A DNA stretch of 64,000 bases from Candidatus Uhrbacteria bacterium (GTDB lineage Bacteria > Patescibacteriota > Patescibacteriia > UBA9934 > GWF2-40-263). Where the stretch lies: positions 173,987-237,986 of the forward strand of contig JAPLZK010000003.1 in the NCBI GenBank assembly GCA_026395055.1, read 5' to 3'. Under the pieces are notes generated by a model. The model saw only the letters and a list, made by a program, of their open reading frames with translations, ran no database searches and had not been told where the DNA came from. A program made the position numbers and the translations under genes. Positions 9,391 through 51,388 of this stretch are shown here, one piece after another (position 1 is the stretch's first letter; the number at the start of each line of letters is the position of its first letter).

Positions 9391-9867
9391 ATGACATCAA
9401 GAACAGTACTTACCTCACCAAACGCAGAGTTACGCGTTGTCTCAAAAGAATTCCCAAAAGCGGAATTTGGATCTGATGAAACAAAGACTCTGACACGCGA
9501 TTTGATTGAAACCATGCGTGTGGAAAATGGGATCGGCATCGCCGCGCCCCAAATTGGAGTACACAAGCGCATGATTATTGTAGATGTTGGCAACAACCAA
9601 CCTCAAGCGTTTTTCAATCCAAAAATTACGTCAAAATCGTTTACAAAAACAGAAAGCGAAGAAGGATGTCTCTCTGTGCCTGGCGTATTTGGAATTGTGA
9701 AACGTCACAGATCTGTCACCGTATCCGCACAAAATATGGAAGGCATCACACAGGTCTTCCGTGCGGAAGGTCTCATGGCAATTGTCTTTCAACATGAAAT
9801 TGATCACTTGGACGGCATTCTTTTTATAGACAAGGTTCTTCGTTACACTTCTCACCCAAAACTATGA
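9391..9867 (+). CDS. def: Peptide deformylase
   Basis: Motifs GIGIAAPQIG, EGCLSVPG and QHEIDHLDG. Confidence 0.9.
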   Translation: MTSRTVLTSPNAELRVVSKEFPKAEFGSDETKTLTRDLIETMRVENGIGIAAPQIGVHKRMIIVDVGNNQPQAFFNPKITSKSFTKTESEEGCLSVPGVFGIVKRHRSVTVSAQNMEGITQVFRAEGLMAIVFQHEIDHLDGILFIDKVLRYTSHPKL

Positions 9868-10820
9868 AGACACGCGTTGTCTATTTCGGTTCTCCGGAAT
9901 TATCGGTTCCTTTTTTATCCGCGCTCGTAAACGACACGGATTTTGATGTTGTAGCGGTTGTAACACAACCAGAGAAACCCGTTGGTCGAAAAGCGGTCAT
10001 GACAAAATCCGCCGTTCACGAATTCGCAATCACACATAATATTCCCGCACTTACTTACAAGTCATTACGATCGGATGAAGTTGTTACAGAACTCTCAAAG
10101 TTGGAGGCGGACATCTTTGTCGTGGTCGTCTACGGAAAGATTATTCCAAAGGCCGTTCTCGACATTCCAAAGTTTGGCTGCATCAACGTTCACCCATCAC
10201 TCCTTCCAAAGTACCGCGGTCCATCGCCATTTCAAGAAGCCATTCGTATGGGCGAGAACGTAACAGGTGTATCGATCATGCTTCTCGACGAAGGAATGGA
10301 TACGGGGCCCGTGCTTACAATGCATGAATTTCCAATTGATGAACGAGAGACCGGTGAAACGATTCAACCAAAAGTTGTTGCGATCGGCGTGCCGTTGCTT
10401 CTCGACGCACTCCGCAAATGGACAACGGCTGATCGTGTAGCAATTCCACAAGACGATGCGCTTGCAACCTATTCAAAAATGTTGTCGAAGGAAGATGGAA
10501 AGATCGATTGGTCTAAGTCCGCGCTCGAGATTGATCGTCAGGTGCGAGCATTTAAACCATGGCCAGGAACATATTTTATCTGGAACGAGGATGGAAAAGA
10601 TGTTCGTGTCGTTGTACACGAGACATTGCCACTCGAGAGTTCATCCGATCGAACTCCTGGAAGTGTCATCGAAGATACGGGCCGCATCATGATCGTTTGT
10701 GGAGACCATTCTCTTCTCGAACTTATTACAGTCCAACCGGAAGGCAAAAATAAAATGTCCTCGAACGAATATGTTCGAGGACATCAATCATTTTTAAAAA
10801 CAAACCTTATTTCGTCCTAG
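9864..10820 (+). CDS. fmt: Methionyl-tRNA formyltransferase
   Basis: Formyltransferase N-domain (NVHPSLLPKYRGPSP) plus C-terminal domain; ATGA overlap with def; conserved priA-def-fmt order. Confidence 0.9.
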   Translation: MKTRVVYFGSPELSVPFLSALVNDTDFDVVAVVTQPEKPVGRKAVMTKSAVHEFAITHNIPALTYKSLRSDEVVTELSKLEADIFVVVVYGKIIPKAVLDIPKFGCINVHPSLLPKYRGPSPFQEAIRMGENVTGVSIMLLDEGMDTGPVLTMHEFPIDERETGETIQPKVVAIGVPLLLDALRKWTTADRVAIPQDDALATYSKMLSKEDGKIDWSKSALEIDRQVRAFKPWPGTYFIWNEDGKDVRVVVHETLPLESSSDRTPGSVIEDTGRIMIVCGDHSLLELITVQPEGKNKMSSNEYVRGHQSFLKTNLISS

Positions 10821-12345
10821 AGGTAGCAATAGATGTCGCGAGTTCTGCTCGTGGCATTTTTTGTTTGGCGCGCACTCGAATGCGAAGTCCTGGCACTGAG
10901 ATGATTGGCACAAACACAATTGCGAGAAGAATGAGGCCAAGGCCGATTGGGTGGTTCAGATATGGTGAGAAGAAGTGTGTGAAATACAGAAACGTCATGA
11001 ACTCAAGGATCCAAATGCCAACCCACGCCTTATCCGATCGAAGCAGGCTCGAAGCGGCGTACGCGGTATAAGCGAAGACTGCGAGAAACCCAAGCGGTGC
11101 GAGGATTCCCATCTTGAGCCAAAGCTCAAGCCAACCCCATTCCATAGAGGTCGTTGTCCATGAACCGTCCGGATGGATGGCACGAATGCGTGGGTCATCT
11201 GTGATGAATGTCACGGTTTGACCAAACCCATTGCCGAGGATTGGATCCGCCTTGATGAGATCAAGCATTGGATGCAAAAGATTCCAACGACTTGAAACCG
11301 CAACATCTGTTCCAATCGCGCGTTCACCAAAGACACCCGTGAGATATTCACCGGCCGCTCGTGTGTGTGGAAATGGAAAAATAACGGTCGAGTAGATGAG
11401 CGCGATCGCAATCACAATCGAAGCAATGATGGATCCGATTCCGAGAAGCCAATTTCGCAATGATGTTTTGAGTCCGAATACAAGCCAGACCCCGAGAATC
11501 AACATGGCCGCAATGAATCCAAACAGAAAACTACGTGACATGCCGACGAGTATGGCAATGAATACAACCGACAGAAGCGCAATCGAAATGCAACGATCTT
11601 TTCGAGATTGCACCTGATACACACGTTCAAGCAAAATGAATCCAAAGACAACGGCGAAAACCTGTGTTTGTTCGAAAATCCGATACATCCCCATTCCAAT
11701 GTTTGTCATCTCAGCAAAACGGATATCGCGCAAATAAACGTACATGACACGCAGGAAGGATTGTGAAAGATGGGTGAAGGCGTAGAGAATGAAAAGCGAC
11801 ATTGCGGTTGTAAAGACAGTTGCGGCCGCGAGTATCTGGAGAACAACGCGTTGTTTCAAACTATCCCATTGGACGTTTATGATTGGAACAAGATACGCCA
11901 AATAAAGATATGCGTTACCATCTTGAAAAACTTCCATAGTTGATCGACGCGTGAGTCCGATCATTCCACCAACTCCGATCGCGAGTGCGAGCACAAGAAA
12001 TGGTACATATCGTGTATCTCGTAACTGAAGTGAGGTACGTCGAAGCAAGATTGCGAGTCCCCATCCGAGGAATAAGCCAAGGAAGATCGTCATGCGTGCG
12101 GAAATACGGACACTTCCGATCGAGTCGTACAAAATGTATCCATGTGCGTTTGAAAGGAGTTCGAGAAATGCGATCATGAGTCCATACTCAAGTTTTCGAA
12201 ACGTTGCGACAAGTGTCACGAGTCCGAGTAGGCCGAGAATGAATAGACTTGAGTGCAAGAAATATCCGACCATCGACAACAAGAACAATCCCGCGAAGCC
12301 GAGGAGTGCGAATCGAAACGGTTTTCCTAAAAATTCTTGGATCAT
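10807..12345 (-). CDS. O-antigen ligase/polymerase-like polytopic membrane protein (Wzy_C family)
   Basis: About 12 predicted TM helices and a large C-proximal periplasmic loop containing IHPDGSW...MEWGWLELWLKMG, resembling the O-antigen ligase signature. Confidence 0.5.
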   Translation of the reverse strand: MIQEFLGKPFRFALLGFAGLFLLSMVGYFLHSSLFILGLLGLVTLVATFRKLEYGLMIAFLELLSNAHGYILYDSIGSVRISARMTIFLGLFLGWGLAILLRRTSLQLRDTRYVPFLVLALAIGVGGMIGLTRRSTMEVFQDGNAYLYLAYLVPIINVQWDSLKQRVVLQILAAATVFTTAMSLFILYAFTHLSQSFLRVMYVYLRDIRFAEMTNIGMGMYRIFEQTQVFAVVFGFILLERVYQVQSRKDRCISIALLSVVFIAILVGMSRSFLFGFIAAMLILGVWLVFGLKTSLRNWLLGIGSIIASIVIAIALIYSTVIFPFPHTRAAGEYLTGVFGERAIGTDVAVSSRWNLLHPMLDLIKADPILGNGFGQTVTFITDDPRIRAIHPDGSWTTTSMEWGWLELWLKMGILAPLGFLAVFAYTAYAASSLLRSDKAWVGIWILEFMTFLYFTHFFSPYLNHPIGLGLILLAIVFVPIISVPGLRIRVRAKQKMPRAELATSIATSRTK

Positions 12346-20361: not shown

Positions 20362-22245
20362 TTACGTGAGAACAGCCTTGATTCTTCTGAGTCCAGATCC
20401 GATCGATTCTTCCTTCTGAATCTCAAATTTTCCTAGTTCGGCGGTGTTTGATACATGAGGCCCTCCACAAACCTCTTTTGAGAAGGCGTCTCCCATAGCT
20501 TCATCACCAACGAAATAGACTTTTACCTTATCTCCAACTTCTGCATACTTATCCGTAAATAGTCCGATTGCCCCTCGCGCTTTTGCTTCTTCAAGCGTCA
20601 GCATTTCGAAGTGAACCGGTAACTTCTTTGAAATTGCCTCATTAACCAGCCCTTCAACCTGTTTAATCTGATCATCCGTGAGTCTTTCTGGATACGGAAA
20701 GTCGAATCGGAGGCGTTCTGGGGTGATGTTGCTTCCCTTTTGGACGACCATATCACCAAGAACCTGTCTAAGCGACTGATGAAGTAAGTGAGTTGCTGTG
20801 TGGTATTTAACGCTCATTTCTGACGTATCTGCAAGACCACCCTTGAACTTCTGCTCTGAACCAGCTCGAGAAAGTGCTTGATGCTTTTCTTTTTCGACTT
20901 TAAACGTTTCCATATCGACCGTAAACCCATTCTCTGTCGCGAGCTCTTGTGTCAGCTCAACAGGAAACCCATAAGATTGAACGAGATCAAATGCATCCAT
21001 TCCTGATATCTGTTTATTACTTTCAACAGTCAGGAGCTCAACGAATTTCTTCATTCCCTGTTTCAACGTTTGTTGAAATTTCTTTTCCTCCTTCGCGAGC
21101 TCGGCAAGAACCCTATCTCGAGAAGATGCGAGATTCGGATATGCTTCCGAATAAGCTTCGATGAATGTTGCACCGATCTGAGCACAAACATCTTCTGTGA
21201 TATTCAGCCAATGTGCGAAACGAACGGAACGACGAATTAATCTACGTACAAAATATCCCTGATCTTTATTCGATGGATTAACACCATCACCAATAAGAAA
21301 TGTAGCAGCTCGAAGGTGATCCAAGATCACACGGAATTCATCCGTGTGTGTTTCGTAGGTTCTTCCACTGAGTTCTTCTAGCTTTTGAATAGCGGATTGA
21401 AAAACATCTACACGAAAAATATCTGGATCCCCATTCACCGCCGCGCACACACGTTCAAGTCCACCTCCAAAATCCACGTTTCTTTGTTTAAGCTCCTCAA
21501 AACCTGTTTCTGTCTTCACGTATTGCATGAACACATTGTTTCCAATTTCAACGAAACGCCCACAGTCACAGTTCACATGACATGGTTCGTTTTTCCAATT
21601 TGAAATTTCATGCAAGTTTCGTTCCGCACCAAAATCCCAAAACATTTCTGTGTCTGGACCACCGGGTTCTCCAACAGGCATGTTTGATGGCACGCCAGTT
21701 CTACTCCACCAGTTTTTTTTTTCTGGTTAATAAAAAATACGTTCACCAGATTTCATTCCGTCTTGTTCCACATTTTCACCAATCGCCGCATCAATCCCCT
21801 TTGACGCAAATAATTTTTGCCACAATGCTGCAGACTCTTCATCTCTGGGAATATTCAAATCCGTATTTCCTCGAAATACAGTCACATATAAATTCTTTGG
21901 ATCAAGTCCAAGATTCGTCGTCAAAAATTCAAACATCCATGTGATTTGCTCATTTTTGAAATAATCTCCAAGCGACCAGTTGCCGAGCATTTCAAAAAAC
22001 GTTGTGTGACGATTATCTCCCACTTCATCAATGTCTTGTGAACGAAAACATTTTTGAGAATCTGCAATACGAACACCACGAGGATGTGCCTCGCCGAGTA
22101 AATAAGAAACCATTGGTTGCATTCCGGATCCGGTAAAAAGGGTCGTTGGATCATTTTCAGGGATCAACAATGCGGATGGAAGAATGGCATGACCATGATC
22201 AGCAAAAAACTTCAGGTACTGTTCGCGAATTTCAGAAATCGTCAT
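20362..22245 (-). CDS. alaS: Alanine--tRNA ligase lacking the C-Ala domain; the reading frame is interrupted by one in-frame TAA (21727..21729) next to an A10 homopolymer
   Basis: The two ORF-track pieces (21727..22284 and 20362..21693) are in the same frame, separated by TAA plus 11 sense codons (PEKKNWWSRTG) that match the conserved AlaRS NFW-MGDTGPCGPC region. The catalytic and editing domains are present. The start was moved to MTISEIREQYLKFF at 22245. Confidence 0.75.
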
Positions 22246-22299
22246 AATGCGTGGATTGTACAAAGGAAAGAGATGAAAAGTCAAAAAGGAAAAAACCTT

Positions 22300-34788: not shown

Positions 34789-37293
34789 TCAATCGAATTT
34801 TACGCTTTGTCCTACGTGCAACTTTCCAGATGTTGGTTGTTCAGGTGATTTCTCTGCGGGTTTTTCTACTGGTACCTCGACCGGTTTCGTATCAGGCGGT
34901 GGCACAACAATAGGTTCTGTGACAATCGGAGCGTGTGGAACTTCAACCCTTGGCTCTTGTCGCTCTGGTCGTTTTTGTTCTTGAAGAGATTTTAAGGAAA
35001 TAGTTTGTCCGGTTTGTGATAGTTGTGTGGTGATTTCACGGCGAACTTCTTGTGCTCGTGTATCAGAAATACGTTCAGATGCTCGAGGTGTTCCAGGTGA
35101 ATGAGCACTGGACTGCGGAGATTCTAAGCCAGTTCCTGTTTTCTTTTTGCGTTTACGCTTGCGTTTGCGTTTTTCTCCTTCGAGGACGGGGGCAGCCGAA
35201 TGTGGCGCTTGAGGCTCATTCGTTGTTTGTGAAGGAACGCGCGACAAATTCCCCATCGGTCGAACGGGTGTTGTTATGGGCGGAGACACTTGACCCCGCG
35301 CTGGAACGAGCGGTTGCGATTGCGGCTTTGATTCTTGAGGAACTCGAATTACAGGTTCGCTAGGCGTGTTTACAACAACAGGTTTTTGTTCAACACGAAC
35401 AACAGGCACTGGAATAATTGGTGCCTCGACAACAAGTTTTGGTTCTGGTTGAACAGGAGTTGGTTGTGATAATTCTGGTTTTGGAACAGATTCGACGACA
35501 GGTTGCGGTTTTGGCGCAACAACCACGGGTTCGGATCTTCTTTGTTCCATTGGTTGCGCGGTTGCGACGGGTTTTTGTTCCGGAATCTTTTCGTTCATCT
35601 GAGGTTCCTCTACAACAACCACCTCTACAGGCTTTGGCATGAGTGTTGAAAGAGAAATGGTTGGTTCGTCTGGTAACTTATGATCTTCAACTTCCTGAAC
35701 TTCCGATGAACGCATCTCACGAGGAGATGCTTCTTTGACAGGAACCTTTGGTGGAAGATTGCGTGTATCTGCTGGCTTACCCCCCGTTTTTCCTCCACGA
35801 TTATTCTTTTCCTCACGCACAATCTCAATACAATCTTCACAGTAAATTGGACGTGAGCGATCAAGTTCTACAGGCAAAACCATTTTTTTGCCGCAACGCG
35901 AACAATCATATTCAAATTTTGGCTTCTTTGCGTCCTTTGCTGCCACCTTGTCTGTTTTCTTTTTTTCTTCCGCTTCTGCAAGCATGGTATCAACATCCAT
36001 GTTTCCCATTCCGCTCCACGTCAAAATTTGTTCTTCAATAAATCCACGTTCTTTTGCGTAACGTTCTCGAGAAACTTTAATGACACGCTCTTCTGAATCT
36101 GTCTTTTGAGAAATTGGCGGAAGCGTGATGGCAGAAAACGGCTGACTTGTTACTCCGTTGATGAGCAACTTTAAGTACACGTTATATTTTGGAAGATTGA
36201 TAATGTCTTCTGGTAAAAAACGTGGGGCAAATTCTGTTTCCATGTACTTTGCGTCCGGAGAACCCACACGAAACGAAATAATTGTTCCGACGTTACCAAA
36301 AACCGCTTCACGCACTTCATCTGTAAGCTGCGCAATGTACTGGTGAGCAATGGTTAAACACAAACGATACTTACGTGCCTCAGACAAAATCCCAGCAAAA
36401 GAATCCACAGCAAAGTTTTGGAACTCATCAACGTACAAGTAAAAGTCCATACGGTCTTTTTCTTGCATGTCTACACGTTCCATGGCGGACAATTGCAATT
36501 TCGTAATCAACAGTCCTCCAAGTAAACGAGAACTATCTTCTCCAATACGTCCCTTGGAAAGGTTAACGATGAAAATCTTTCCAGAGTCCATGATTTCACG
36601 AATGTTGATACTGGATTTCACCTGCGCAACAATGTTTCTGATCACAGAAGCAGACAAAAACTGTCCAATCTTGTTTTGGATTGGAGCCACAGCCTCCTGC
36701 GCGTATTTTTCATTATACGAAGCAAACTCTCTCAACCAGAATTGTTTCACCACAGGATCCGTCACATTCGAAACAATACGCTTGCGATAATCTGCATCTG
36801 ACAACATGCGGTTGATTCCAAGCAGCGTTGATCCTTGGTTATCAAGCAATGCGAGAATCGTGTTGTTCAAAATGTACTCCATACGGGACGACCATTGGTC
36901 TTCCCAAATCTTTTTGAAAACTCCCATCATTCCACTTGCGACCAAGTGTTTATGTCGTTCAGAGACGGCCTCCAGGATATTAAATCCAACCGGATATTCC
37001 GCGTCAGATGGATTGAAGTACACAACATCGTTAATGCGCCAGCTTGGAATGTAATTGATGAGCTTTTCTGCCGTGTCTCCGTGAGGATCCACGTAACAAC
37101 AACCGTGTCCTGCGTAAATATCAGAAAGGGTGAGGTTCTCAAGGAGAACCGTCTTTCCCATACCTGTTTTTCCAATCACATACACATGTCGACGGCGATC
37201 GTCGGTTTTGATTCCAAATTTCGTCATCGCATTTCGGAAGTTTGTCTTCGCAAAATAGTTGACCTCGTTTTCATGTTCGTGATTGTAGCCCAT
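34789..37293 (-). CDS. VirD4/TraD/HerA-like (FtsK-HerA superfamily, T4 coupling-protein-like) ATPase with a C-terminal zinc ribbon and a long disordered Pro/Val/Glu-rich tail
   Basis: Walker A VIGKTGMGKT, Walker B LYVDEFQNF, and a TrwB/TraD-like C-terminal AAD motif (VFGNVGTIISFRVGSPDAKYMETEF). Zinc ribbon CSRCGKK...CEDC at about aa 460-480. A tail of roughly 350 aa rich in P/V/E/K with a KRKRKRKRKKK run. Confidence 0.7.
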   Translation of the reverse strand: MGYNHEHENEVNYFAKTNFRNAMTKFGIKTDDRRRHVYVIGKTGMGKTVLLENLTLSDIYAGHGCCYVDPHGDTAEKLINYIPSWRINDVVYFNPSDAEYPVGFNILEAVSERHKHLVASGMMGVFKKIWEDQWSSRMEYILNNTILALLDNQGSTLLGINRMLSDADYRKRIVSNVTDPVVKQFWLREFASYNEKYAQEAVAPIQNKIGQFLSASVIRNIVAQVKSSINIREIMDSGKIFIVNLSKGRIGEDSSRLLGGLLITKLQLSAMERVDMQEKDRMDFYLYVDEFQNFAVDSFAGILSEARKYRLCLTIAHQYIAQLTDEVREAVFGNVGTIISFRVGSPDAKYMETEFAPRFLPEDIINLPKYNVYLKLLINGVTSQPFSAITLPPISQKTDSEERVIKVSRERYAKERGFIEEQILTWSGMGNMDVDTMLAEAEEKKKTDKVAAKDAKKPKFEYDCSRCGKKMVLPVELDRSRPIYCEDCIEIVREEKNNRGGKTGGKPADTRNLPPKVPVKEASPREMRSSEVQEVEDHKLPDEPTISLSTLMPKPVEVVVVEEPQMNEKIPEQKPVATAQPMEQRRSEPVVVAPKPQPVVESVPKPELSQPTPVQPEPKLVVEAPIIPVPVVRVEQKPVVVNTPSEPVIRVPQESKPQSQPLVPARGQVSPPITTPVRPMGNLSRVPSQTTNEPQAPHSAAPVLEGEKRKRKRKRKKKTGTGLESPQSSAHSPGTPRASERISDTRAQEVRREITTQLSQTGQTISLKSLQEQKRPERQEPRVEVPHAPIVTEPIVVPPPDTKPVEVPVEKPAEKSPEQPTSGKLHVGQSVKFD

Positions 37294-37308
37294 AACGTAA
37301 GGTGAGGA

Positions 37309-38934
37309 TCAAACAGGAAGATCAGGTGGGGTAAATAATTCTTCGTCAGATGCGTCTGCGGGAGACGTATCCCCGAAACGACCTTTTGGTAAAAAGGCCT
37401 CTGCGTCTTCATGTTCTATGTCTGTAGGTGCTTTCAAGTGTGGAAGTGTTTCCGGTAATGGTTCTTTTGAAGTGACATATGTTCCTGCAAGACGAGATTC
37501 CGCAGATTCGTGATGTTCCATTGGCATTCCGCCTGGAAGAGGAAATTCATTATCCCCCGCTCCAGGCAACGTGTTCTCCAAGAATGTTGTTGGCAATCCA
37601 ACAGGAGGTTCTGCACGACGTGCTTCTGATTTCTTGATGAGTGGAGCTTTGATACTGATCGTTGGAAAATGCCAAAGCGTTGCCAACTCTTCTGCATTCA
37701 AATAAACAGGATTCGCCCCAATTCCCCAACTGCGCCCTTGAAACGCCTTCATGAGGATTGTTTGTTTTTTTTCATAATCCCACTTCTGCCAGAAGTAATC
37801 ATCCTTTGGAACAGAGGGACCATGCATCTTAAATGAATTCAAGTTCAAGTGAGAATACTGGTTCAAAATTCCCTTAATGATGGTTACACGATCTCCTTTT
37901 TTATAAACTGCCTTTTGCGCGCAATACACAATACGAATCTTCACGGCATGTCCAACCTTTATGGTTTTCTTCATGATGGCCTTTGCTTCATCTTGTTGTG
38001 CGGGACCAAGTTTAAATGCTTTCCAGGGATCTGCTTCTTTTGTTGCTTCTGACGCCATTCCAAAAAATGGCGCGAGATCGATTTCCGTAGCGTGAGCAAT
38101 TAATTCAAATGGTAATTTAAAAACAGTTTGTGCTGCAGCAACAAGGTCATTCTTCTTTGCCGCCTTATCTTCAACACCGAACGTTTTGTTTACATGTGCG
38201 ATTCCCGCCTTTTTCCATTCATGACCGGTTGGCTGAATAACCATCTGAAACCAAAAATGCTCCCCCGGTTTCATTTTAGACATTTGTTCGAGCGTGTAAC
38301 CAAGAGGATCTTTAATTTCTCCTGTCATTTGGTCTTCAAAATCCACATACGTTCGAATGGGAAAATGAGATTCCTTGTCTAACGTAAATTCCGCACCCCA
38401 CATGTCATATTTCTCATCGGGAAAGAGTTTTGGAACTTTTGTGACGTAATCATCAACCTCATTCATTTCCGCATCAGGATACTGCGCGTAAATACCTGCC
38501 TCAATGACGTCTCGGAATTTTGCTTGTGTACGAATAATAAACTGCATGTACCCTTCTTCTGAAACAATTTCAAAAGAAAACGTTGGCATGATTTTTCCAT
38601 CAAACCATTTTTCCTTAAATGTAGGACTAGATTTTGCCGCGTACAGTGCCGCAAATAAGTTTTCAAGCGCCTTTGGGGTTTGTTCTGTCATGGACGGAAC
38701 GTCAACCGCAAGACAAATATATTTTTGTTTTGCCGCGAACACTCCTTGTCGTTCTGCAAGCCACAATTCTGAAAAACCCCACAGAAGTGTTGTGAGGACA
38801 GGGATCCAACCAAACCAGACCAAGAGATCAAAAAAAATGACATCAATCGGTTGATTGAGGAAAGAAAGTGAAATCATTGGGACAGATGATTGCGCGGATT
38901 GTTGGATGATCTGAATCGCAAGCATGGGAAACAT
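37309..38934 (-). CDS. Hypothetical membrane protein (N-terminal TM hairpin plus about 450-aa soluble domain and an acidic Pro-rich C-terminus), co-operonic with the VirD4-like ATPase
   Basis: TM segments (VIFFDLLVWFGWIPVLTTLLWGF); no recognisable domain; 15-nt gap to the ATPase gene. Confidence 0.55.
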   Translation of the reverse strand: MFPMLAIQIIQQSAQSSVPMISLSFLNQPIDVIFFDLLVWFGWIPVLTTLLWGFSELWLAERQGVFAAKQKYICLAVDVPSMTEQTPKALENLFAALYAAKSSPTFKEKWFDGKIMPTFSFEIVSEEGYMQFIIRTQAKFRDVIEAGIYAQYPDAEMNEVDDYVTKVPKLFPDEKYDMWGAEFTLDKESHFPIRTYVDFEDQMTGEIKDPLGYTLEQMSKMKPGEHFWFQMVIQPTGHEWKKAGIAHVNKTFGVEDKAAKKNDLVAAAQTVFKLPFELIAHATEIDLAPFFGMASEATKEADPWKAFKLGPAQQDEAKAIMKKTIKVGHAVKIRIVYCAQKAVYKKGDRVTIIKGILNQYSHLNLNSFKMHGPSVPKDDYFWQKWDYEKKQTILMKAFQGRSWGIGANPVYLNAEELATLWHFPTISIKAPLIKKSEARRAEPPVGLPTTFLENTLPGAGDNEFPLPGGMPMEHHESAESRLAGTYVTSKEPLPETLPHLKAPTDIEHEDAEAFLPKGRFGDTSPADASDEELFTPPDLPV

Positions 38935-39016: not shown

Positions 39017-39940
39017 TTATTTTTTCTTTCCTTTTATCCCCTCCCATGTCACAAGCGCAGGGCTTGCAAGGAAGATAGATGAATACGTTCCCGCAATGAT
39101 TCCTACGATAAGGGCAAGGGAGAACGGACGTGTTGTGTCTCCTCCAAAGAAGAAGATGGCGGTTAAACACAGCAAGGTTGTCATGGATGTGCTAATGGAA
39201 CGACGAATGGTCTGGCGAATACTGACATCAACCGTTGTTTCAAAAGATGGACTGATGTGTTTGAGCAAGTTTTCACGCGTACGATCAAACACCACAATCG
39301 TGTCTGTAATGGAATAACCAAGAACAGTCAGAATGGCCGCTACGAATGCGGTATCAACTTCCCAATTGAGAAACTTTCCAAGAATCGCGAAGACGCCGAG
39401 CGGCACGACAACGTCATGGAATGCGGTGATAATGGTGAGAACACCGTATTTCCATGAAGCAACAGGATGTGTCACTTTACGAAAGGTAAAGGCGACGTAA
39501 GAACCGATGAGCACAAGAATCAAAATGATTCCAAACGCCGCAGACTTTTGTAATTCCTTTCCAATGACTGGACCGATGGAATCAAATTTTTCTTCCGCTG
39601 TTTTGTCTCCGTATGTTTTCTTAAGATCAGACAACAATGCTTGGTGCTGTTCTTCATTTAAACTCTCAAGACGAATGAGCGCTCCGTTCGTGCTTGTTGA
39701 TTGAACAATGACATCATTATGACCAAGTTTTGCAACGTGGTCGCGCAATTCTGTTGTGACAACCGGTTTTTCAAAAGAAACTTCAAGCAAACTTCCTCCC
39801 GTAAAATCGATTCCGAGTTTTAAGCCGAACATTCCGATGGAAACCACACACACAAGCACAATCGCTCCTGAAATGGCGTACCAAAGTTTTCTGTATTTAA
39901 CAATATGGATTTGCATAGGATTATGACTTGTTATCTTCAT
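39017..39940 (-). CDS. secF: Protein translocase subunit SecF
   Basis: SecF signature (GIDFTGGSLLEV) and a 6-TM C-terminal half. Confidence 0.9.
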   Translation of the reverse strand: MKITSHNPMQIHIVKYRKLWYAISGAIVLVCVVSIGMFGLKLGIDFTGGSLLEVSFEKPVVTTELRDHVAKLGHNDVIVQSTSTNGALIRLESLNEEQHQALLSDLKKTYGDKTAEEKFDSIGPVIGKELQKSAAFGIILILVLIGSYVAFTFRKVTHPVASWKYGVLTIITAFHDVVVPLGVFAILGKFLNWEVDTAFVAAILTVLGYSITDTIVVFDRTRENLLKHISPSFETTVDVSIRQTIRRSISTSMTTLLCLTAIFFFGGDTTRPFSLALIVGIIAGTYSSIFLASPALVTWEGIKGKKK

Positions 39941-41999
39941 TTTTCTTTACACCAAAGAGAATTGGTTTGTGTGTCCACTTCCAACCAAAGACGGTATGGA
40001 GATATTGGCGCGCCACATAAATTGCCGTAAACAAACTGAGAACGACTCCAATTCCAAGGGTGAGGGCAAATCCACGAATAAAGCTTGAACTGAACCAGTA
40101 CAACACAACAGAAGAGATGAGTGTGGTGAAGTGACCGTCACGAATTGCAGCCCATGCACGTCGTTCTGCTTCATCTGCGGAGGAGATTAATCCTCTACCT
40201 GATGCGTATTCCTCTTTCAAACGTTCAATAATGAGAACGTTGGCATCAACCGCAATACCAAGAGACAAAACAAGTCCAGCAATACCTGCAAGCGTAATGG
40301 TTACTCCAAAGAGTCTGTACGCAAGCATATTCAATGAAGAGAACAGGAGCAACGCAACAATTGCAATCACACCTGGCAAACGATACATGCCGATCATGTA
40401 AATGGTGACGAGCAAGAATCCGATAAGCGCCGCCATGATACTTTTTTGCAACGAGACAGATCCAAGTGTTGGACCAACAGTTTGTTGTGAAAGCAAGGTG
40501 ACAGGAACAGGAAGCGCACCCGCATTTAAGCGTTGTGCCAAAATCTTTGCTTCATCAAGGGTGAAGTTTCCGGTAATAACCGCACGACCACCATAAATAG
40601 CTGCCTGAACAACAGGAGTTGAAATAGGAGAACCATCAAGAAAAATCGCGATTGGTTTTCCAACGTTTGCGGCAGTGAGTGTTCCAAACAGATCCCCTCC
40701 GTCTTTATCAAACGTGATTCCAACATAAGGATTTCCTGTCTTTTGATCAAATTCTACAACCGCGCTTTGCAATTGCTTTCCAGAAAGTTGTGTGTTTTTC
40801 CAAGGTGACGCTGGAGGCAAAACATCTGCCATGGTGGAAAGCTTCATCGCGATACGTTGAATCTTAAACGCTGGGATCACTTTTTGATCTTGCTTATAAA
40901 TCAAATGGTATCCGAAGTCTGTTTCGACAATATCTGAGATTTTTCCAACAGGAAGCGTTTCTGCAGCCGCTCCAAATGCTGGGACGTATTTATCTGCAGT
41001 TGCGTATCCAAGATCTCCACCATTTGTTGCAGCGCTAGGATCTGTAGAGTTTTTCTTTGCGAGGTCTGCAAAGTTTTGTGGGGTTGCTTCCTTCTTTAAA
41101 TTTGAAATTTGAATATTCGCGTCTATTGCGGACGTATCCTTTGAACATCCCTGCTTGCCCTTTGAACAAATCAAGATGTGCGAAAGATGCATGTTATTTG
41201 CGGTTGTATTTTCAAGCACTTTGAAAATTTCAATAGAACCACCAGATTCAACGGTTTTCCAAAATACAGATCCTGCTTTTGGTTTGTTTTGTGTAAGTGC
41301 TTTTGCGATTTCAGGATATTGGGCAGAATCAGAAGTAATTTTTGGCATTATACCTTTTGTGTCTGCCTTTGCAGCTTCTGTACTTACCTCCGCAACAAGC
41401 TTATCAAAATCTTCTCCTTTTTGTGCACGAAGCAAAACGGCTTGTGCGGCAGCACGGTCTGCCTTTTGCAACTCTGCAAGTTTTGTTTGATCTGCCGCTG
41501 TTGGTTTTGTATCTGTTTTTGATCCTTGTTCTTTAAATTCCAAAACAGGTGTTTCTCCAATTTGTTTAATGGCATCAGAAACATTCAACACACCCGCAAG
41601 TTCCACAATCACACGAGACACTCCGCCTGTTGATGTGGTTTGTACGAGCGGTTCAGAAACACCAAACGCGTTTACACGACGTTCAATCACATCACGAACA
41701 CCAGAAAGAGCGTTTGCGCGATCTTTTTCTGGGATCTCTTTCATGTCCGCAGAATAAACAAGGTGTGTTCCACCCTGCAAATCAAGTCCAAGACGATATG
41801 CATGTTCGTTAAGCACTGGCAAAGAAACGTGCGCTTTCGCTTTTACAAATCCGGCCGTTACATTCCACGCGTGTGGAAAATCATAAAATCCCGCAACAAG
41901 TGTTACGATCAAAAAAACAACGGTTGCAACTTTTGCTTTCCATGGTTTATGAACTTTCTGTGCGTTCTGAGACGTTCGTTTGGTTTTCCAAGTTTGCAT
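39921..41999 (-). CDS. secD: Protein translocase subunit SecD carrying a tandem parvulin-type (PpiC) PPIase insertion in its periplasmic P1 domain
   Basis: SecD N-terminus, P1 segments and 6-TM C-terminus. Inserted at about aa 158-372 are two parvulin-like units, the second with clear PpiC motifs (HLSHILI...NGGDLGYA...VPAF...FGYHLIYK). Confidence 0.85.
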   Translation of the reverse strand: MQTWKTKRTSQNAQKVHKPWKAKVATVVFLIVTLVAGFYDFPHAWNVTAGFVKAKAHVSLPVLNEHAYRLGLDLQGGTHLVYSADMKEIPEKDRANALSGVRDVIERRVNAFGVSEPLVQTTSTGGVSRVIVELAGVLNVSDAIKQIGETPVLEFKEQGSKTDTKPTAADQTKLAELQKADRAAAQAVLLRAQKGEDFDKLVAEVSTEAAKADTKGIMPKITSDSAQYPEIAKALTQNKPKAGSVFWKTVESGGSIEIFKVLENTTANNMHLSHILICSKGKQGCSKDTSAIDANIQISNLKKEATPQNFADLAKKNSTDPSAATNGGDLGYATADKYVPAFGAAAETLPVGKISDIVETDFGYHLIYKQDQKVIPAFKIQRIAMKLSTMADVLPPASPWKNTQLSGKQLQSAVVEFDQKTGNPYVGITFDKDGGDLFGTLTAANVGKPIAIFLDGSPISTPVVQAAIYGGRAVITGNFTLDEAKILAQRLNAGALPVPVTLLSQQTVGPTLGSVSLQKSIMAALIGFLLVTIYMIGMYRLPGVIAIVALLLFSSLNMLAYRLFGVTITLAGIAGLVLSLGIAVDANVLIIERLKEEYASGRGLISSADEAERRAWAAIRDGHFTTLISSVVLYWFSSSFIRGFALTLGIGVVLSLFTAIYVARQYLHTVFGWKWTHKPILFGVKKNEDNKS

Positions 42000-48121: not shown

Positions 48122-49726
48122 TTACTTACAACCCGGTGTCCATTTATGTGTGCAGGTGTTCCCAATACAGGCATCAACCGTGCACCCCTGACCATCGTCG
48201 TTGCATACACCCTCTTGCGGGTTTGCATATGGGAGGAAAACACATCCTTTCTTTGCTTCATCACACGCGTCCGACGTGCACCCGTTTCCATCACTACACA
48301 CGTATGCGTCATGAACGGAACACATCGAATCTTTGCACTTGTCGTTGATGGTACACAGGAGTCCATCGTCGCATTTCAGGGCGTTTGGAACGTGCGTACA
48401 GAGCATGCTTGCACAGACATCTGTTGTGCAAACGTTTCCGTCGTCCAAACATTTTGTGCCATCCGGTTCTTGCGGGTGCATGCATTTGCCGTCCGCGCAT
48501 TTGTCTTGCGTACAGGCATTACCATCATCCGTGCATTTGCCGTCAGATGACGCAGCGTGTTTGCAACCCGTGAATGGATCACACGAATCCGTTGTGCACG
48601 GATCGTTGTCGTTGCAATTCAACGTACTTCCGCCGATGCATGTCCCCGCAGCGCACTGTGAAAGTGCGGTGCAAATATTTGCGTCATCACAGGCAGAACT
48701 GGTGAGAGGTGTATGTTTGCATCCACCATCAGTGTTGCAGACATCTGTCGTACAGCTATTGCCGTCGTCGCAGAGATCTTCATCGGTCTTGCCGTCACAA
48801 TCGTCATCCTTTCCATTACAGGTTTCGGGTGACGCATCCGGCGCATTGCAGATGGCTTTGCCGTCGCTGCAGGCAATGAACTTTCCAAGGCATGTGCCGA
48901 ATTCGTTCTTCTTGTCACATTGAACACCAAATGTATTCTCGTCGATGTTGTCCGTCTTTGCATCGCAGTTGTCGTCTTTCCCGTTACAGATTTCCTGTTC
49001 AGGGACTTGACCGACACATCCAGACAATCCATTCACCGTACACGTACGAGTACCCGCACAAGACCCAAAAGGATTTGTGTTGGCACAGGCCGTAGAAAAA
49101 CCTTTCTGGATGGCAAAGGGCGAACACGCACATGTTGCGTTTCCAGAAGGGAGACACTGTGAGCTTCCAGCCCCGCTCTTTGGATCCGTGACGAATTTGC
49201 ACGTATATCCTTTGGGGCAATCATCGCTCACTGGGTCACAGGTCACTCCACAAAAACTCCCCGCGTCACCATGACTGATGCACGCATTGTTCGAGTCTTT
49301 GGCAAAGTTGCATTGATCGTTTGTCGTGCACGGATTACACAGGTTCAACAAGCGAGAAACACAGACGAACTGAACATCTGTTCCACCACCTACAACCTGT
49401 CCGCATGCGTATCCACTTTGACACGACTGTACACAGATCATCGAGCACTTTTTCCCGTTCTCTGTTTGTAAACAAAGACCGGAATCACAATCATCTGAAT
49501 GTTCACACGCGTAGCCAAACTGACCCGGCGTGATCATGACATCACTTTGCGTTGAGACAAGTACGTCCGTGAACACATCTGCCGTGAGTACCGCATCGAG
49601 TTTTGCATCTCCCGCAACGTCTGCGTTCGATGTGTCCCCATTGGACGGCGCTAAGATCTGATCAGTACCACATCCAATCGATGTGCAGATGAGGCAAAAA
49701 AGACAGATTTTTTGAGAGAGCGTCAT
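48122..49726 (-). CDS. Cysteine-rich tandem-repeat lipoprotein (about 16 copies of the C-D-D-G-N-x-C-T-x-D-x-C motif)
   Basis: Signal/lipobox-like N-terminus (MTLSQKICLFCLICTSIGCG) with an AGGAGG ribosome-binding site 8 nt upstream of the ATG at 49726. Repeated DGNxCTxDxC units such as DGNACTQDKCADGKC and DGNVCTTDVCASMLC. Confidence 0.7.
   Translation of the reverse strand: MTLSQKICLFCLICTSIGCGTDQILAPSNGDTSNADVAGDAKLDAVLTADVFTDVLVSTQSDVMITPGQFGYACEHSDDCDSGLCLQTENGKKCSMICVQSCQSGYACGQVVGGGTDVQFVCVSRLLNLCNPCTTNDQCNFAKDSNNACISHGDAGSFCGVTCDPVSDDCPKGYTCKFVTDPKSGAGSSQCLPSGNATCACSPFAIQKGFSTACANTNPFGSCAGTRTCTVNGLSGCVGQVPEQEICNGKDDNCDAKTDNIDENTFGVQCDKKNEFGTCLGKFIACSDGKAICNAPDASPETCNGKDDDCDGKTDEDLCDDGNSCTTDVCNTDGGCKHTPLTSSACDDANICTALSQCAAGTCIGGSTLNCNDNDPCTTDSCDPFTGCKHAASSDGKCTDDGNACTQDKCADGKCMHPQEPDGTKCLDDGNVCTTDVCASMLCTHVPNALKCDDGLLCTINDKCKDSMCSVHDAYVCSDGNGCTSDACDEAKKGCVFLPYANPQEGVCNDDGQGCTVDACIGNTCTHKWTPGCK
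48150..49250 (-). repeat. Coding tandem repeat array (units of about 78-84 nt, Cys-rich motif) inside the lipoprotein gene
   Basis: Periodic recurrence of the DGNxCTxDxC peptide motif. Confidence 0.55.
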
Positions 49727-49843
49727 CAAGGAAACCTCCTGGCATGGGCAAGCAACATGCCCAGAGATCTTTTCAGAAAAAAATGAAATTGTCAATAGTT
49801 TAGATAAAAAAATCCTCCTTTCAGGTGAAAGAAGGAAGAGGTG

Positions 49844-51388
49844 TCAGGGGACGCAATTACCAATCGGGACGAAAACACATTTGCCTGTGGTTGGATTGCA
49901 CGAATCGGAGGTGCACTTGTTTTGGTCGTCGCACACAAGCGGAGGCTTGCTAATGCAGACACTGTTGTTGCACTTGTCACCGGTTGTGCACGCATCGCCA
50001 TCGTCGCACGGATCGTTGTTGACGTTTGTGAAGATGCATCCCGTTTTTGGATTACAGATGTCATCCGTACACGAGTTACCGTCATCACACTTGTAAACCT
50101 TACCTACACATGTTGTTGCGGAGCACTCACTCGCAAGCGTACATGCGTCGCCGTCGTCGCAGGAGTAACCCTGGTTGGCCGTGTGGTTACACACGCCAAT
50201 GGCTGGGTCACAACTATCGTTCGTACAGACATTATTGTCATTACAAGTCTGCGACAGTCCTTTGCAATTGTTGCCGTAACAGATGTCGCCGATTGTACAG
50301 GCATTGTTGTCATTGCACGGATCCTTGTCGTGAACCGTGAACTGACAGCCTGTTGCCGCAATACACGAATCTTCCGTGCAATCATTTCCGTCCGCGCACT
50401 GCTTCTGCTTGCCAATGCAAACACCAAGCGAGCACTGATCGTCCGTGGTGCACAGACTATTGTCACTACAAGAAAACACGTTTGGAATAGGCGTATGAAC
50501 GCACACACCCGTCCCGGAATCACACGAGTCTGCCGTGCAGACATTATTGTCGTTGCAATTCTTCTGGTTTCCTGAGACACACTGACTCTTTTGACACGTG
50601 TCATTCTGCGTACAAAAGTCCCCGTCGTTGCAATTCGCCCCGTCTGCTTGGGGTGTCGAATAACATCCAGCAACCTTGTCACACAGATCCGCCGTACACG
50701 CGTTCCCGTCATTGCACGTAATTGGCGTTCCGGCACAAGCACCCTTTGCGCACTGATCCGGTGCCGTACAGGCATTGCCGTCATCACACGGATCGTTCGT
50801 GAGCTTTTCATGAACGCACTGGTTGATTTCGTTACAGTAGTCCTTTGTGCATTGATCTGCATCATCACAGTCCACGGCCTTGCCGAGACAGTTGCCGTTC
50901 AGACAATGGTCGTTGTTCGTGCAGACGCTTCCGTCGTCGCATGGGATGTCGATGTTCACGTGCGAGCATCCTGCGATCTTGTCGCAAGGATCAAGCGTGC
51001 AAGGTTTGCCATCTGAACAGTCGACTCCCTTTGGACCAACACATGTTCCGATTGCAGAACAAACATCGCCCGTCGTACAGACATCGCCATCAGAACACGC
51101 GGTACCTTGTGGCGAAGGCTGGTGATGACACTCACCCGTTCCCGGGTCGCACCAATCTTGCTGACAAGGAGTCTTCGTGTCGCACTGTTCGTGCGTCACA
51201 CAGACAAATACATCTGCCGCAATTTCCGGCCCAGTGTCTTGTGGGACATCCGGCGGAAGATCGGGCGAACCCGAGTCCATCGAAACATCACCAGCAACTT
51301 CAGGAGGTGCAGAAACAATGGTCGAATCCGAGCACGCCGATACATAAACACAACCAACGATCAAAAGGGCTTTCGTCAAACGATTCAC
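49844..51388 (-). CDS. Cysteine-rich tandem-repeat lipoprotein, paralog of the adjacent gene (about 16 repeats)
   Basis: Lipoprotein signal (LLIVGCVY). Repeats include DGDVCTTGDVC, DGKPCTLDPCD, DGNACTAPDQC, DGNACTADLCD, DNNVCTADSCD, DGNDCTEDSC and DGNSCTDDICN. A GGAGG site lies upstream. Confidence 0.7.
   Translation of the reverse strand: MNRLTKALLIVGCVYVSACSDSTIVSAPPEVAGDVSMDSGSPDLPPDVPQDTGPEIAADVFVCVTHEQCDTKTPCQQDWCDPGTGECHHQPSPQGTACSDGDVCTTGDVCSAIGTCVGPKGVDCSDGKPCTLDPCDKIAGCSHVNIDIPCDDGSVCTNNDHCLNGNCLGKAVDCDDADQCTKDYCNEINQCVHEKLTNDPCDDGNACTAPDQCAKGACAGTPITCNDGNACTADLCDKVAGCYSTPQADGANCNDGDFCTQNDTCQKSQCVSGNQKNCNDNNVCTADSCDSGTGVCVHTPIPNVFSCSDNSLCTTDDQCSLGVCIGKQKQCADGNDCTEDSCIAATGCQFTVHDKDPCNDNNACTIGDICYGNNCKGLSQTCNDNNVCTNDSCDPAIGVCNHTANQGYSCDDGDACTLASECSATTCVGKVYKCDDGNSCTDDICNPKTGCIFTNVNNDPCDDGDACTTGDKCNNSVCISKPPLVCDDQNKCTSDSCNPTTGKCVFVPIGNCVP
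49900..51150 (-). repeat. Coding tandem repeat array (about 26-28-aa Cys-rich units)
   Basis: Periodic DGNxCTxDxC motif. Confidence 0.55.

Follow-up and report, generated by a model that had tools for sequence, protein, structure and literature searches.

A conserved gene pair on the chromosome of Candidatus Uhrbacteria

The DNA analysed here is a stretch of 64,000 nucleotides (nt) from a Candidatus Uhrbacteria bacterium (contig JAPLZK010000003.1 of GenBank assembly GCA_026395055.1), hereafter called the window. On its minus strand, a gene for a 541-amino-acid (aa) protein of the family DUF8128 (PF26449) is followed by genes for an 834-aa ATPase, an alpha/beta hydrolase and a SAMHD1-like HD phosphohydrolase (Table 1). 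We propose that the products of the first two genes are best read, from their sequences and those of their relatives, as the parts of a split type IV coupling protein (T4CP), probably one that has been domesticated as a motor with a housekeeping role. An initial annotation of the same DNA had treated all four genes as a single translocation or defence-type module, although the span it gave, 34789-38934, contains the DUF8128 and ATPase genes only. The tight packing that it described is real, with gaps of 15, 1 and 9 nt from the coordinates of the open reading frames (ORFs), and Pfam agrees with its naming of the third gene as an alpha/beta hydrolase.

Two samples of related loci, 143 in all, were compared: 63 loci from GTDB species-representative genomes, mostly of Uhrbacteria with some Komeilibacteria and other Patescibacteria, and 80 more divergent loci from metagenomes. 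Linkage was counted only over loci with enough DNA on the relevant side. The ATPase gene lies directly downstream of the DUF8128 gene at all 58 genome loci and at 43/59 metagenome loci, and at one further metagenome locus (L097) the two are separated by a 2.4-kb insertion with two extra ORFs (9585-10986). This adjacency, together with the fusion of the two proteins in paralogues (see below), bears out the dedicated membrane partner that the initial annotation had given to the ATPase. The hydrolase gene follows at 10/49 genome and 3/29 metagenome loci and the HD gene at 31/49 and 3/29, compared with 40/49 and 12/29 for the unrelated gene mnmA. Both genes are thus almost absent from the loci outside Uhrbacteria. 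Because both are linked less often than mnmA, the hydrolase and the SAMHD1-like enzyme are syntenic neighbours at the level of the order within Uhrbacteria and not components, and the conserved unit is two genes, DUF8128 and ATPase. The initial annotation had itself made its module depend on the four genes staying together in relatives; by these counts the pair is co-conserved and the four-gene module is not. Clustering of the neighbours at the 143 loci yielded no third conserved component, the recurrent neighbours being secDF, rpoD-like, uppP-like, mnmA and era. An rpoD-like gene stands between secF and the DUF8128 gene at 38 loci (for example L093 734-1873 and L060 15376-16164), and a uppP-like gene comes after the ATPase gene at 30.

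A four-gene module for DNA uptake or degradation, or for anti-phage defence, would accord with the short gaps, which suggest co-transcription in this genome, and HD-type hydrolases of deoxynucleoside triphosphates (dNTPs) can act in defence. By its HD domain and its similarity to solved dNTPases in the PDB (2hek, 5.6e-37; EF1143, 2o6i, 1.6e-29; SAMHD1, about 1e-22), the 434-aa protein does appear to be a SAMHD1-like HD dNTP triphosphohydrolase, as had been annotated. The dGTPase model of PADLOC matches it weakly (23 bits, 1.1e-5), and the PADLOC hidden Markov model (HMM) for mad8 of the MADS system matches residues 33-373 of the ATPase at 3.7e-16. However, the NCBIfam models of anti-phage dGTPases give the HD protein about 15 bits against cut-offs of 383-400, mad8 was the sole MADS component that PADLOC reported for the four genes, and the neighbours with a Pfam match are housekeeping genes; the similarity to mad8 probably reflects the shared ATPase family. 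Nor is there an island signature, since the GC content of the four-gene region (0.43-0.45) equals that of its flanks, with no composition anomaly. A phage origin was rejected as well, given that a scan of viral contigs returned just one 41-aa fragment. Combined with the linkage counts and with a conservation of the ATPase that exceeds that of SecA (see below), these results make such a module very unlikely, and they leave the defence-type reading of the initial annotation without support.

About 50 more ORFs of the window were scanned with Pfam, and those with a match are nearly all housekeeping genes (GltX, ClpB, PriA, Def, Fmt, glycosyltransferases, L13, RpoA, S4, AlaRS, MurJ, MurB, MurC, Era, MnmA, SecA, SecD, SecF, SHMT, FolD and DnaB). 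The window is housekeeping chromosome of Candidatus Uhrbacteria, a group of the Patescibacteria or candidate phyla radiation (CPR). These scans showed no VirB-type, pilus or competence gene, as the initial annotation had already remarked for VirB-type genes in denying that this is a conjugation locus, and neither they nor the recurrent neighbours at the 143 loci included a relaxase gene or a gene of a type IV secretion system (T4SS). We therefore read the pair as neither a conjugation module nor a defence module.

Table 1. Features of the gene pair and of its surroundings, with positions in the window
Feature	Positions	Strand	Basis
DUF8128 (PF26449) gene, 541 aa, putative membrane-anchor half	37309-38934	minus	ORF list, database twin
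Predicted single N-terminal transmembrane (TM) helix, about residues 30-57	38764-38847	minus	Only Kyte-Doolittle window >1.6
Predicted cytoplasmic alpha/beta domain, about residues 70-440, VirB4/TrwK-like fold	37615-38727	minus	AlphaFold2 model, fold search
Invariant internal EPPVGLP (EPPxxLP), residues 442-448	37591-37611	minus	Family alignments
C-terminal PPDLPV (PPxLPV), closing a disordered acidic tail (residues 450-541)	37312-37329	minus	Family alignments
VirD4/TrwB-type ATPase gene, 834 aa, putative soluble motor half	34789-37293	minus	ORF list, Pfam, hhalign
Walker A GKTGMGKT, residues 41-48	37150-37173	minus	G41, G44, G46 and K47 invariant
Walker B FYLYVDE, residues 284-290	36424-36444	minus	F284, Y287, D289 and E290 invariant
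Predicted zinc ribbon CxxC-x17-CxxC (C464, C467, C485, C488)	35830-35904	minus	zf_Tbcl_2 1.1e-4, TIGR04272 3.1e-5
Low-complexity tail of ~334 aa (P 17%, V 13%, E 11%) with KRKRKRKRKKK patch	34792-35793	minus	Composition
Alpha/beta hydrolase gene, 219 aa	34128-34787	minus	Pfam Hydrolase_4 7e-13
SAMHD1-like HD phosphohydrolase gene, 434 aa	32814-34118	minus	Pfam HD and HD_assoc_2
secD (parvulin domain inserted) and secF, directly upstream of the DUF8128 gene	39017-41999	minus	Pfam
secD alone	39921-41999	minus	Pfam
Small multi-TM protein, 139 aa	32398-32817	plus	
TM protein, 350 aa	30039-31091	minus	
AlaRS, first ORF	21727-22284	minus	
AlaRS, second ORF	20362-21693	minus	
Two adjoining proteins with CTDC-type repeats	48122-51388	minus	

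An ATPase of the VirD4/TrwB type

Two Pfam families of coupling proteins match the ATPase above their cut-offs, TrwB_AAD_bind (PF10412; 1.6e-9, 37.6 bits against 20.5) and TraG-D_C (PF12696; 1.3e-5, 25.6 bits against 22), and together they span residues 27-347. A profile built from 24 homologues of the ATPase aligns in hhalign with residues 115-394 of TrwB from R388 (probability 97.4%, E 9e-12); its alignment with the VirB4 protein TrwK reaches a probability of 9% and is confined to the surroundings of the P-loop. Sequence matches in the PDB were to TrwB and DotL only. Both Walker motifs align with their counterparts in TrwB, their invariance (Table 1) having been judged over 24 split and fused homologues, and an all-alpha insertion in the nucleotide-binding domain is indicated by the TrwB_AAD_bind and TraG-D_C matches and by the extent of the alignment with TrwB. 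In its P-loop motor, its Walker A and B motifs and this insertion, the protein resembles the VirD4/TrwB T4CPs such as R388 TrwB and DotL.

It departs from them in several respects. No hydrophobic or TM segment was detected in the 834 aa, whereas T4CPs carry an N-terminal TM region on the same polypeptide; here the anchor would be the product of a separate gene. Unlike those proteins, the window ATPase is not linked to a T4SS or relaxase gene, it is chromosomal and more conserved than SecA, and it adds a zinc ribbon and a predicted disordered tail of ~330 aa. Among its homologues, which are 580 to 870 aa long, conservation is limited to the core and the zinc ribbon, the latter being kept among Uhrbacteria according to matches to a profile of the C-terminal part, while the tail differs in length and sequence. 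The distance from characterized conjugation proteins is also seen in the NCBIfam equivalog models SXT_TraD (46.5 bits against 366) and conju_CD1115 (39.6 against 250), for which the ATPase falls far below the cut-offs. By these profile matches, the 834-aa protein is a divergent coupling-protein ATPase of the VirD4/TrwB type without a membrane domain of its own, and its motifs are those expected of a catalytically intact T4CP-type motor.

A housekeeping FtsK/SpoIIIE would likewise belong to the ASCE/FtsK-HerA superfamily, be chromosomal and be highly conserved. Yet no FtsK_SpoIIIE or gamma-domain family of Pfam matched the ATPase at E<0.01, the best families being the two named above; the protein lacks the multi-pass N-terminal domain, and no divisome gene stands beside its gene in the Pfam matches of the neighbours or in the locus clustering. 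Pfam, the TrwB alignment and the genomic context thus refute membership in that family, which leaves such an identity next to no probability, although an FtsK-like function is still conceivable. The protein is not a HerA by the same measures, as the DUF87 score of 18.1 bits falls short of the cut-off (23.2) and no NurA was seen among the neighbours. The initial annotation was therefore correct in calling the ATPase a relative of type IV coupling proteins and not an FtsK; among the profile searches it had suggested, that for TrwB_AAD_bind succeeded, whereas FtsK_SpoIIIE gave nothing and DUF87/HerA stayed below its cut-off.

The DUF8128 partner

Our local Pfam scan assigned no family to the 541-aa protein. 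Its family is known from a 100% identical database protein, of a Candidatus Uhrbacteria metagenome-assembled genome, with a precomputed PF26449 domain, which is also precomputed on all but one of 120 homologues among the matches listed. With the DUF8128 profile, 2564 cluster representatives (50% identity) were retrieved, of which 855 matched at E<=1e-30. No matches were obtained in a profile search against PDB sequences, and no searchable paper mentions PF26449 or DUF8128.

The description of this protein as a membrane protein in the initial annotation applies to one N-terminal hydrophobic helix but not to the rest, which is predicted to be soluble and cytoplasmic. An AlphaFold2 model based on a 141-sequence alignment (pLDDT 82.8, pTM 0.75) has a helix at residues 30-69. 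Since the N-terminus is devoid of charged residues and R/K residues come after the helix, the predicted topology is N-out and C-in, and the fusion of paralogues to a cytoplasmic ATPase fits a cytoplasmic C-terminal part. As modelled, the soluble part has a VirB4-like fold, in keeping with that of the VirB4 N-terminal domain. The match most likely falls on this domain, given that no other P-loop ATPase was among the listed fold hits and that DUF8128 has no Walker motif. DUF8128 differs from VirB4/TrwK in carrying its own TM helix and in being partnered with a VirD4-type motor. A precedent for a small protein related to the VirB4 N-terminus beside an ATPase gene is offered by TrsD and TrsE of pSK41/pGO1 (PMC12102498), but TrsE is of the VirB4 kind, and its alignment with the window ATPase is limited to the P-loop region. 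The fold match to EccE, which would bring to mind the EccE-EccC pair of type VII secretion (T7SS), is much weaker than the VirB4 one, and no other T7SS genes go with it.

The conserved domain extends to about residue 448, with the internal EPPxxLP motif at its end, and is followed by the acidic tail, in which the pLDDT is below 50 over most of the length. A P..LP motif occurs within the last few residues of 100 of the 141 DUF8128 members. Across members the extreme C-terminal motif reads (P)PxNLP-hydrophobic.

Fused paralogues and plasmid relatives

In many patescibacterial paralogues the two proteins form a single polypeptide. At the metagenome locus L103, an 854-aa protein matches the DUF8128 profile at residues 43-412 (E 1e-46), and over residues 413-832 it shares 42.5% identity with the window ATPase. 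When its N-terminal part was searched against the database, proteins from Magasanikbacteria, Uhrbacteria, Buchananbacteria and Gottesmanbacteria were retrieved, and among the matches listed most of 120 combine PF26449 with the T4CP-type domains PF10412, PF01935 or PF12696; full-length DUF8128-T4CP fusions among the listed database proteins measure 776-783 aa. The order of the domains in the fusions is the order of the genes at the window locus, and at the fusion point the EPPxxLP that closes DUF8128 leads into the N-terminus of the ATPase, the acidic tail being left out. Fusion and adjacency support the view that the two window proteins are physically associated.

L074 (11620-12891) and L103 (14063-16627) each have a second, paralogous T4CP-like gene a few kb from the DUF8128 gene, with 40-43% identity to the window ATPase, which fits the roughly two copies per genome reported for Patescibacteria (PMC12102498). 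At L144 (5629-7989) and L147 (5481-7920) a fused paralogue is preceded by two conserved ORFs of 617-662 aa and 144-164 aa, both very basic, without a TM segment and without a Pfam match. We considered these as channel proteins and dropped them because they have no TM segment, are very basic and are absent from the window. At L144 the fused paralogue also has genes for NrdR and the large subunit of a ribonucleotide reductase upstream and a NUDIX gene downstream.

Searched against plasmids, the ATPase core found 395 records, all below 60% identity, in hosts that are mainly Streptomyces, Bacillus, Staphylococcus, Clostridium, haloarchaea and Sulfolobus. On a plasmid of Embleya, the homologue (33% identity for the ATPase) makes up the C-terminal half of a T4CP of 812 aa, encoded in a cluster with PrgI-family, ATP-binding, replication-relaxation and NlpC/P60 proteins; the N-terminal half of this T4CP has one TM helix and is collinear with DUF8128 (HMM E 2e-8; hhalign E 1.1e-4, probability 56%). 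A 1276-aa protein of Halorubrum pHLAC01 likewise has a DUF8128-like part followed by the ATPase (HMM E 1e-13; ATPase identity 24%), and no N-terminal TM helix was detected in it. A disrupted gene of Pontibacillus (HMM E 1e-26), located a few kb from a pilin-like conjugal-transfer gene, shows this order as well and encodes one N-terminal TM helix. As judged by these alignments, the DUF8128-plus-T4CP architecture occurs in mobile-element coupling proteins of Actinomycetota, Bacillota and haloarchaea. These long proteins are single polypeptides on plasmids, Embleya's within a conjugation cluster, in contrast to the window protein, which consists of two separate polypeptides, is chromosomal and has no T4SS gene nearby. 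The plasmid architecture fits the origin of patescibacterial T4SS parts from monoderm conjugation that has been published (PMC12102498). The closest plasmid relative of the ATPase core comes from an alphaproteobacterium, Sulfitobacter (L149 6953-8140, 395 aa, 41% identity), where its orphan gene stands next to transposases and lacks a partner.

The initial annotation did not recognise the partner as the N-terminal half of one and the same coupling protein, now encoded separately, a conclusion drawn from its fusion to the ATPase in paralogues and plasmid homologues and from its VirB4-like fold.

Conservation and possible function

Over the loci at which all proteins were comparable, the median identity to the window protein is 81.7% for the ATPase core, 68.3% for SecA, 65.4% for the HD protein, 62.7% for MnmA, 58.3% for SecD and 51.9% for DUF8128. 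The ATPase is thus shown to be under stronger purifying selection than SecA. Such constraint, together with the chromosomal housekeeping context and the lack of viral copies and defence partners noted above, argues for a core cellular function. Since the pair is chromosomal, lies among housekeeping genes and includes a motor more constrained than SecA, we consider it probable that a coupling protein of a mobile element was split and domesticated for such a function. Published surveys are consistent with this, as 5,713 VirD4-type homologues were found in 2,918 of 3,035 Patescibacteria genomes, just 148 of them near virB4, and the unlinked genes were suggested to be perhaps "exapted for other functions" (PMC12102498; see also PMC10633639, PMC12857230).

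In the mechanism that we propose, DUF8128 would contribute one membrane helix and a cytoplasmic VirB4-like domain, and the ATPase would be a soluble motor of the VirD4/TrwB type with an all-alpha insertion, a zinc ribbon and a disordered, proline-rich tail bearing a basic patch. By binding to each other the two would assemble into an ATP-driven translocase, anchored in the membrane and probably hexameric, with the DUF8128 tail ending in PPxLPV as a candidate tether in place of the covalent link of the fused forms. The substrate would most likely be a nucleic acid, DNA, passed to or from a membrane channel encoded elsewhere, which may be the chromosomal T4SS core of Patescibacteria, docked through the VirB4-like domain, or another conduit. 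T4CPs are DNA-dependent motors. This behaviour of the family, the zinc ribbon, the basic patch, the conservation of the motor and the neighbouring genes of nucleotide metabolism, which occur beside both types of paralogue (the HD dNTPase here; NrdR, ribonucleotide reductase and NUDIX at the fused form), are weak hints that lead us to name DNA as the substrate, with low certainty.

The neighbourhood also invites another thought, namely that the pair is an accessory motor for protein export or the handling of membrane proteins with the Sec machinery. secF lies within 2.5 kb upstream of the DUF8128 gene at 54/58 genome and 33/62 metagenome loci, with secD-secF directly upstream on the same strand and, in the window, secA a few kb further upstream; this linkage persists where DUF8128 is only 34-40% identical and at some loci without an adjacent ATPase gene. 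Moreover, proteins are the cargo of some T4CP relatives, DotL among them, and the fold match to EccE is reminiscent of T7SS. However, the synteny was examined mostly in relatives of Uhrbacteria, in which the unrelated rpoD-like, mnmA and era genes are syntenic too, the fused paralogue has no sec neighbours, and no Sec partner is known from the family of the ATPase. A Sec-linked role is hence unlikely and a weaker competitor than the one considered next.

The pair may instead be a coupling protein, encoded in trans, of the chromosomal patescibacterial T4SS, which would recruit protein effectors (or DNA) and dock on an inner-membrane complex of VirB3-, VirB6- and VirB8-like proteins through its VirB4-like domain. 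This is at once a specific version of the split, domesticated coupling protein and its main competitor. The N-terminal domain of VirB4 binds VirB3 and VirB8, the partner protein appears to have a VirB4-like fold, and the ATPase belongs to the T4CP family. Patescibacterial T4SS clusters are almost never near a t4cp gene, yet VirB4 is present in 2,417/3,035 genomes (PMC12102498), and no coupling protein is recognisable in the Se T4SS cluster according to Wang et al. 2023 (PMC10633639). Against this stand the absence of any T4SS gene within 7-10 kb at all 143 loci (0/143), the rarity of relaxases (109 in 103 genomes; PMC12102498), and the finding that in S. epibionticum the T4SS genes, but not the t4cp homologue, are essential (PMC12102498); a component co-evolving with divergent pilins and effectors would also be expected to be far less conserved than the ATPase is. 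We regard a T4SS-bound role as possible but rather improbable.

Somewhat more doubtful still is that the pair works independently of any T4SS as a near-universal, Patescibacteria-specific housekeeping translocase, in which a VirB4-type domain joined to a VirD4-type motor would represent a surviving intermediate between the two families of T4SS ATPases. The task of such a translocase could for instance be to carry DNA through or along the membrane, whether to scavenge nucleotides or to handle the chromosome. We rejected one argument for T4SS independence, the presence of T4CPs in 96% of genomes compared with 80% for VirB4, because two T4CP copies per genome at ~80% completeness of metagenome-assembled genomes would give the same figures.

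Several observations weigh against a split, domesticated coupling protein with a housekeeping role. At 15/59 distant loci the DUF8128 gene comes without an ATPase gene in the available locus DNA, and the synteny with secDF could point to protein export instead. At the level of sequence, hhalign detects no similarity of DUF8128 to either TrwK (E 0.22) or TrsD (E 0.12, probability 0.5%), and the assignment to the VirB4 N-terminal domain is indirect, made from the absence of other P-loop ATPases among the listed fold hits and of a Walker motif in DUF8128. The dispensability of the t4cp homologue in the transposon sequencing of S. epibionticum (PMC12102498) speaks against an essential role in particular, provided that this homologue is orthologous to the DUF8128-linked ATPase family; redundancy between paralogues could explain it.

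A large share of bacterial diversity falls within the Patescibacteria, nearly all of which have genes for VirD4-like ATPases that are unlinked to their T4SS. What is added here is that such an ATPase has an obligate partner family, DUF8128, which had so far neither a function nor a fold assigned to it, that the predicted fold of this partner resembles VirB4, most likely its N-terminal domain, that paralogues, like plasmid coupling proteins of monoderms and archaea, have partner and ATPase in a single polypeptide, and that the conservation of the motor exceeds that of SecA. These points provide a concrete two-protein target for genetics in the cultivable Saccharibacteria, and they bear on the divergence of VirB4 and VirD4.

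Other features of the window

Scans for promoters and terminators carried no usable signal: promoter-like sites were no more frequent than expected by chance, and the sole strong terminator is located after mnmA. tRNA and Rfam scans of the window gave no matches. The small 139-aa multi-TM protein is encoded just after the HD gene on the opposite strand, and it is kept in the closest relatives at the equivalent place before mnmA, again on the opposite strand. A 350-aa TM protein without a Pfam match is encoded after mnmA. The two adjoining proteins at 48122-51388 carry repeats of the Dictyostelium CTDC type and lie in a stretch of higher GC content (~0.49-0.51). Alanyl-tRNA synthetase is encoded by two consecutive ORFs, the first covering profile positions 1-140 and the second positions 159-447 and the SAD domain, which could be a natural split or a frameshift. 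In SecD, a rotamase domain of the PpiC/parvulin type occupies residues 257-372, between SecD_1st and the P1 head subdomain.

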